In this document: one piece after another, positions 1-326 of the stretch | Layout of the letters: each line of letters opens with the position of its first letter | Position numbering within the stretch: the first letter of the stretch is position 1 | DNA from: Escherichia coli | GTDB taxonomy: Bacteria > Pseudomonadota > Gammaproteobacteria > Enterobacterales > Enterobacteriaceae | Assembly (NCBI RefSeq): GCF_003334255.1 | Contig: NZ_QOWU01000164.1 | DNA length: 1,323 nucleotides | Direction: 5' to 3' (one strand) | Made by a program: the position numbers and the translations under genes | Notes under the pieces: generated by a model | Told to the model about the DNA's origin: nothing | The model's database searches: none | The model's input: the letters and a program-made list of their open reading frames with translations, nothing else

Positions 1-326
1 CGGTGAACACTTACTGGCGACGCCGTGGCAGCACATATTTTGTATCAAAAGCCGGGGAGCGTTATCGCCGGGCAGTGTCGCTTATTGTTCGCCAGCAGCG
101 ACTGAAATTAAGCCTGTCCGGACGGCTGGCAATAAAAATTATTGCAGAGCCACCGGATAAGCGTCGTCGTGACCTGGACAATATTCTGAAAGCACCGCTG
201 GATGCGCTGACGCACGCGGGGTTGTTAATGGACGATGAGCAGTTTGATGAAATCAATATTGTGCGTGGTCTGCCTGTTCCTGGCGGGCGGCTGGGGATAA
301 AAATCACAGAACTGGAGTGCGCATGA
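1..326 (+). CDS. rusA: RusA-family Holliday junction resolvase (crossover junction endodeoxyribonuclease), 5'-truncated by the window edge; reading frame begins at nt 3, stop TGA at 324-326
   Basis: The translation aligns by eye to E. coli RusA: DKRRRDLDNILKAPLDALTHAGLLMDDEQF and PGGRLGIKITEL match the RusA [30 protein letters not shown] and KGGRLELTITEM blocks. The catalytic Asp triad and Lys equivalents are present (D at nt 171-173, D at 177-179, K at 189-191, D at 234-236). About 12 N-terminal codons appear to lie upstream of the window. The position directly upstream of a Q-like gene matches phage 82 and other lambdoid nin regions. Confidence 0.85.
   Translation, partial: VNTYWRRRGSTYFVSKAGERYRRAVSLIVRQQRLKLSLSGRLAIKIIAEPPDKRRRDLDNILKAPLDALTHAGLLMDDEQFDEINIVRGLPVPGGRLGIKITELECA

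Follow-up and report, generated by a model that had tools for sequence, protein, structure and literature searches.

The gene for a phage Q antiterminator in an Escherichia coli prophage very probably begins inside the final codons of the gene that precedes it. In the window, which is the whole 1,323-nt stretch of DNA analyzed here (E. coli assembly GCF_003334255.1, contig NZ_QOWU01000164.1), the 3′ part of a Holliday-junction resolvase gene, rusA, is joined to Q through an ATGA stop/start overlap. The explanation that best accounts for this junction, and one in which we place considerable confidence as a whole, is that Q starts at the ATG at position 323, that the GGAG at 314–317 is its ribosome-binding site, and that termination-reinitiation by ribosomes leaving rusA is the most likely mode of its translation. 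The position of the start is firmer still; on comparative and thermodynamic arguments, translation of Q almost certainly begins at ATG 323 to give a product reading MNNQYLQFVREQL…. The main value of this result lies in annotation hygiene, as the correct product is 227 aa in length and starts with MNNQ.

Positions 311–328 of the window read ACTGGAGTGCGCATGAAT, and all of the features that follow are on the + strand. The TGA stop codon of rusA occupies 324–326, where it closes a frame-3 ORF (3..326), and it shares four nucleotides of ATGA (323–326) with a Q start codon at 323–325. The candidate Shine-Dalgarno (SD) element, GGAG, falls within the last rusA codons (…E-L-E-C-A-stop) and is separated from ATG 323 by exactly 5 nt (318–322). 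A GTG triplet at 317–319 lies in the same frame as ATG 323 with no stop between the two, and the alternative proteins would begin with MRMNNQ and MNNQ, respectively. In the list of open reading frames, the frame-2 ORF extends from GTG 317 to a TAG at 1004–1006, because the longest-ORF rule takes the first ATG, GTG or TTG past an in-frame stop, which in the Q frame is found at 248–250 (−75 relative to the ATG). This GTG arises by coincidence, in frame with Q, where the rusA codons GA-G TG-C adjoin, and its choice as a start is an artefact of the rule. The first-pass annotation had placed the SD element, both start-like codons and the rusA stop at these same positions and had pointed out that the choice of start alters the N-terminus by two residues, and it was correct on each count when the sequence and its ORFs were checked. 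Taken by itself, the combination of ATGA and GGAG is weak evidence, because an ATG will overlap a TGA about one time in four (a preceding A suffices) and a GGAG will occur 4–10 nt from a start in about 3% of cases. The junction rises above chance because a conserved 227-codon gene starts there and because related loci preserve the same layout.

The identities of both genes are well founded, and the names given to them earlier (rusA and a Q-like gene) hold. The upstream gene, whose 3′ part fills positions 1..326 and whose 5′ end lies outside the window, ends at the same base as a RefSeq “RusA family crossover junction endodeoxyribonuclease”, and a full-length homologue (L001:2961-3323) matches the RusA profile Pfam PF05866 with an E-value of 6.5e-16. 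The NCBIfam “exception” model for the RusA of E. coli K-12 was matched at 71.8 bits (E 6.6e-20), under its 200-bit cutoff, so the upstream protein is a member of the RusA family and not the K-12 orthologue. The downstream gene (323..1006; 227 codons plus TAG) encodes a protein that matches Pfam PF06323 (Phage_antiter_Q) with an E-value of 1.1e-88 across model positions 1–217 of 220. The Q82 family defined by this profile is one of three unrelated families of Q proteins (PMC9388147). By tblastn, the window's Q is 68.7% identical to the Q of phage 82 (X92588) over residues 1–227 (E 1e-100), and RefSeq protein WP_001064904.1 has a start and stop identical to those of Q at 323..1006. A PDB sequence search with Q gave no match at E ≤ 1, and a search of NCBIfam returned no model matching it. 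By profile and homology, then, window positions 323–1006 hold a phage-82-type Q antiterminator gene of a lambdoid prophage, whose product would be expected to act in antitermination and antipausing on RNA polymerase paused near the late promoter.

The genomic surroundings are of the same kind. The window is up to 99.7% identical to stretches of E. coli chromosomes, where it occurs in a prophage with the gene order hokD, DUF968 (ydfU-like), rusA, Q, a small ORF, a DNA methyltransferase gene and tRNAs. Q thus closes the nin/rusA delayed-early operon, directly ahead of a promoter-like site and a terminator-like hairpin. A consensus scan of positions 1–336 on the + strand found no promoter- or terminator-like site between rusA and the Q start, and this absence of consensus matches, as distinct from transcript mapping, suggests that the two genes share a single transcript.

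The start of Q was compared across 90 related loci, which comprised 80 from IMG/VR and 4 annotated records (84 in total) together with 6 phage records added to these. Counts out of 85 refer to the 84 loci plus the window itself, with the six phage records standing outside that count. A start codon occurs at the position equivalent to 323 in all 85 sequences (84 ATG and one GTG) and in all six of the added phage records as well. In four phages (phage 82, Gifsy-1 and two of Klebsiella), the Q frame contains no start-like codon from the preceding in-frame stop up to this ATG, so the homologous ATG is the sole possible start there. The Q of phage 82 is a member of the family that has been studied by experiment. 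Among 36 distinct sequences, variability in the Q frame at codon positions 1, 2 and 3 was 0.063, 0.037 and 0.25 over codons 2–20, and 0.31, 0.27 and 0.28, without periodicity, 5′ of the ATG. Because periodicity sets in at codon 2, selection on the Q frame begins at the ATG.

The predicted pairing of the message with the 3′ end of 16S rRNA points to the same codon. Within the 20 nt that precede ATG 323, the predicted duplex has an energy of −5.9 kcal/mol and involves UGGAGU at 313–318, which leaves a spacer of 4 nt from the whole duplex or 5 nt from GGAG alone. The predicted energy peak is limited to start positions 310–314. An SD motif at a working distance (4–5 nt) is therefore present inside the upstream gene. 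Comparable purine-rich, SD-like elements, with predicted energies of −4 to −11 kcal/mol, lie upstream of Q in 20 of 20 distinct junction types, and their spacers measure 2–8 nt in 19 of these, with the remaining type (that of L030) scoring 0. Position −8 is nearly invariant across the junction types.

Two other start codons could conceivably be used, and the same comparisons bear on both. A start at GTG 317, whether as the true start or as a second one, would produce the 229-aa Q annotated in E. coli ED1a, and it is very improbable. Bacteria do use GTG as a start codon, the triplet is in frame and unobstructed by a stop, and it is kept at −6 in 75 of the 85 sequences. That retention is explained by the fact that most of these loci share the rusA 3′ end, through common descent and through constraint on the Glu-Cys codons of RusA. 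In the ten sequences where it is missing, four carry GTA at −6 in a junction that is otherwise identical (…GGAGTATGCATGA or …GGAGTACGCATGA) and have an intact gene, and the other six are further IMG/VR loci. The GTG is also absent from all of the phage records examined, including the homologues of phage 82, phage 434, Gifsy-1 and Klebsiella phages. Moreover, the sole SD available to GTG 317 overlaps the codon itself, with zero spacer and a predicted energy of only −2.4 kcal/mol against the −5.9 kcal/mol of ATG 323, and octamers starting at 297–309 reach −1.3 kcal/mol or weaker, so that nothing SD-like lies 5–10 nt upstream. The lack of Q-frame periodicity 5′ of the ATG also speaks against translation from this codon. 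Annotation records are similarly one-sided: PGAP and four independent submitter groups put the start of Q at the ATG, and in a collection of 15 billion proteins the exact 227-aa form occurs on 354 contigs, whereas the exact 229-aa form is found in one record only (GenBank CAR07922.2, from E. coli ED1a), where the start was most likely mis-called and which is the probable origin of the ORF-track start. A start further downstream, for example at the in-frame ATG at 362–364 (Met14), would turn the first 13 codons into a leader, and its likelihood is negligible. Residues 1–13 (MNxQYLQ[FY]VR[EQ]QL) are conserved even in homologues that are only about 57% identical overall, most changes there fall at third codon positions, and the Pfam profile already covers the protein from residue 4 of the ATG form (its match spans residues 6–222 of the 229-aa form). 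Phage 82 and the Klebsiella phages have Ile in place of Met14 itself, and this start was rejected. The earlier preference for ATG 323 over GTG 317, which had been argued from the missing spacer, is thus borne out by homologues, by SD pairing and spacing, and by the annotation retrieved; the comparison of start positions among homologues that had been proposed as its check is the one given above.

If ATG 323 is the start, the overlap with rusA becomes a question of its own, and its distribution is informative. An ATGA or GTGA junction is present in 76 of the 85 sequences. Six others have an 8-nt overlap, ATGAATAA, in which the upstream frame is shifted, and the remaining three have ATGATGA, where an extra ATG one codon upstream remakes the ATGA overlap. 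Annotations of Cronobacter phiES15, phage 82, Gifsy-1 and two Klebsiella phages also show the 4-nt overlap. What precedes Q varies: it is rusA in the window and in phiES15 (which has GTGA at the overlap), orf45/ylcG in three phages (phage 82, Gifsy-1 and one of the Klebsiella phages), and an HNH endonuclease gene in another Klebsiella phage. Because the 4-nt overlap persists whatever the upstream gene, translational coupling fits the pattern and was a reasonable label for the first-pass annotation to choose. Shared ancestry of a single junction does not suffice to explain how widely the overlap is conserved.

The less common junctions have features of their own. In the loci with the 8-nt overlap (L030, L069, L074, L075, L077 and one more, at 1501–1508), the rusA-like gene ends in a different frame (…ITEVGVHE) and its TAA stop is located inside Q codons 2–3. 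In the three tandem ATGATGA loci (L021, L023 and L035, at 1498–1504), a ylcG-like upstream gene stops at the first TGA, and Q in these loci may carry one extra N-terminal Met.

A mechanism that would suit the window's junction can be outlined as follows. The GGAG in the last rusA codons would serve as the ribosome-binding site of Q, and when a ribosome finished rusA and let go of the RusA peptide, the Q start codon would lie only about one base from its P site, with the SD element placed so as to hold the 30S subunit. Much of Q translation would then come from termination-reinitiation, with some contributed by independent, SD-driven initiation, and the output of Q would thereby depend on how actively the delayed-early nin/rusA message is translated. 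Reporter tests with five native E. coli ATGA pairs offer a useful precedent, as four were found to be coupled, and removal of the SD showed it to be strictly essential in one of these four and lowered efficiency by 60–90% in the other three (PMC6728339). The pairs studied by Huber et al. in 2019 (PMC6728339) resemble rusA–Q in being co-directional, in overlapping through ATGA, and in having an SD within the upstream gene near the start; they differ in being cellular genes tested with reporters. On balance, it is more likely than not that coupling to rusA accounts for a substantial share of Q translation.

The competing view of this overlap accepts ATG 323 as the start and has ribosomes recruited de novo by GGAG, with the overlap reflecting genome compaction and no coupling taking place. 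The respectable predicted pairing and near-optimal spacing of the SD would favor such independent initiation, as would the presence of an SD-like element in every junction type of the family. Phage 434 (L086, 1064–1201) has a Q82-like Q with its own SD, and its ylcG-like gene ends 14 nt before Q without overlap, which means that Q can be expressed where no overlap exists. In addition, one of the five tested E. coli pairs, bioBF, initiated de novo (PMC6728339), and for this reason an ATGA motif alone is no proof of coupling. The absence of a significant or conserved structure over the start also leaves room for independent initiation. Set against these points, the overlap accompanies three or more unrelated upstream genes and is even re-created by an extra ATG in the loci with ATGATGA, a pattern that exceeds what compaction alone predicts, and coupling was found for four of the five E. 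coli ATGA pairs that were tested. Initiation that is wholly independent of rusA is accordingly possible but rather unlikely. Because bioBF is uncoupled, phage 434 has a gap and no significant or conserved structure masks the start, we infer coupling by termination-reinitiation without treating it as established.

RNA structure was considered as a further means of coupling, in which ribosomes traversing rusA would unmask the Q start. The minimum free energy fold pairs 322–330 with 345–353, and its z-score of only −1.27 is not significant. Nor is the helix common to ten diverse homologues, for which the consensus energy was −0.35 kcal/mol with 0 compensatory pairs. Since the hairpin is neither significant nor conserved, structure-unmasking coupling is unsupported. 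As to the phage 434 record itself, a note in it puts a recombination crossover (434 versus 434B) at the Q junction and mentions uncertainty about the start codon of Q.

Among the closest known systems is that of phage 82, whose Q has the same N-terminus, MNTQYLQYVREQL, as the window's Q. There too, Q overlaps the preceding gene through ATGA, an SD (AGGAG) lies inside that gene, and rus is part of the operon; the authors of the record annotated a ribosome-binding site at −12..−8. Phage 82 differs in having the 45-codon orf45/ylcG between rus and Q, whereas rusA abuts Q directly in the window, and it is free of any start ambiguity because no in-frame GTG lies upstream. Successive junctions in phage 82 measure −4, −1, −8, −4, −4 and −4 nt, and each time the record marks ribosome-binding sites within the gene before; the junctions of the E. 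coli prophage measure +1 nt (hypothetical/DUF968), 0 nt (DUF968/rusA) and −4 nt (rusA/Q).

The ninR region of lambda was reportedly described in 1982 by Kröger and Hobom (Gene 20:25; cited in PMC7166090) as a chain of interlinked genes. Like the window, lambda has delayed-early genes before Q that are linked head-to-tail by stop/start overlaps, typically ATGA. It differs in that its Q is of an unrelated family (PF03589) and in that rap/ninG, ninH and ninI are found upstream in place of rusA. The rusA–Q junction is therefore a standard compact arrangement of lambda-like phages, already known for lambdoid nin regions, and it adds a further example of interlinked delayed-early genes. With genes linked in this way, the amount of Q made probably scales with how much the nin/rusA message is translated. 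The level of Q sets the onset of late gene expression, including that of Shiga toxin genes in related phages, and the design seen here conforms to what is known.

Natural variation in the last rusA codons (314–322) alters both RusA and the ribosome-binding site of Q. In 14 loci (for example L034, L036 and L057), GGAG is changed to GGGG, which converts the RusA C-terminus from …ELECA to …ELGCA; the predicted 16S rRNA duplex of this allele is −8.4 kcal/mol, compared with −5.9 kcal/mol for the window, and its spacer is shorter. In four loci (L024, L028, L067 and L070), TGC is replaced by TAT or TAC (…ELEYA, Cys to Tyr), which removes the GTG. It is conceivable, although doubtful, that these Glu-to-Gly and Cys-to-Tyr alleles adjust how much Q is made. 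If so, otherwise similar prophages would differ, through their rusA alleles, in the threshold or timing of read-through into the late genes and the Shiga-toxin region.

The region downstream of Q contains several features expected of a late control region. A −35-like TTGCAA (996–1001) overlaps the last Q codons and is followed, after a 17-nt spacer, by a −10-like TATATT (1019–1024). Beyond it, a block at 1029–1041, GTAAATCTGATAT, is conserved in both phage 434 and a Klebsiella phage, and it includes a second −10-like sequence, GATATT at 1037–1042. A GC-rich hairpin at 1079–1093 is followed by a T-run in the manner of a terminator. Positions 996–1099 together resemble the PR′/Q-binding/pause region and tR′ of Q82-type phages, and they likely comprise a late promoter and terminator. 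The CII-dependent antisense site of the paQ type (TTGYN6TTGY) that is annotated in phage 434 had 0 matches in the window.

Some additional elements occur in and beyond this putative late leader. A promoter-like TTGCCA-16-CAAAAT is present inside the leader on the − strand (1067–1040), and a second, weaker terminator-like hairpin lies at 1138–1154 on the + strand (GGTCGTGAATAGCGACC followed by TTTCATCTTG); both are consensus matches only. The first gene past the putative late terminator is an ORF that begins at ATG 1223 and runs off the end of the window (1223–1323), and it corresponds to a 65-aa hypothetical protein in RefSeq (WP_000917749.1). This region is 87–94% identical to several Stx2-converting phages, and the counterparts of the ORF in phiP27 (NC_003356.1) and phiSTEC1575-Stx2k are annotated as a “TrmB family transcriptional regulator”.
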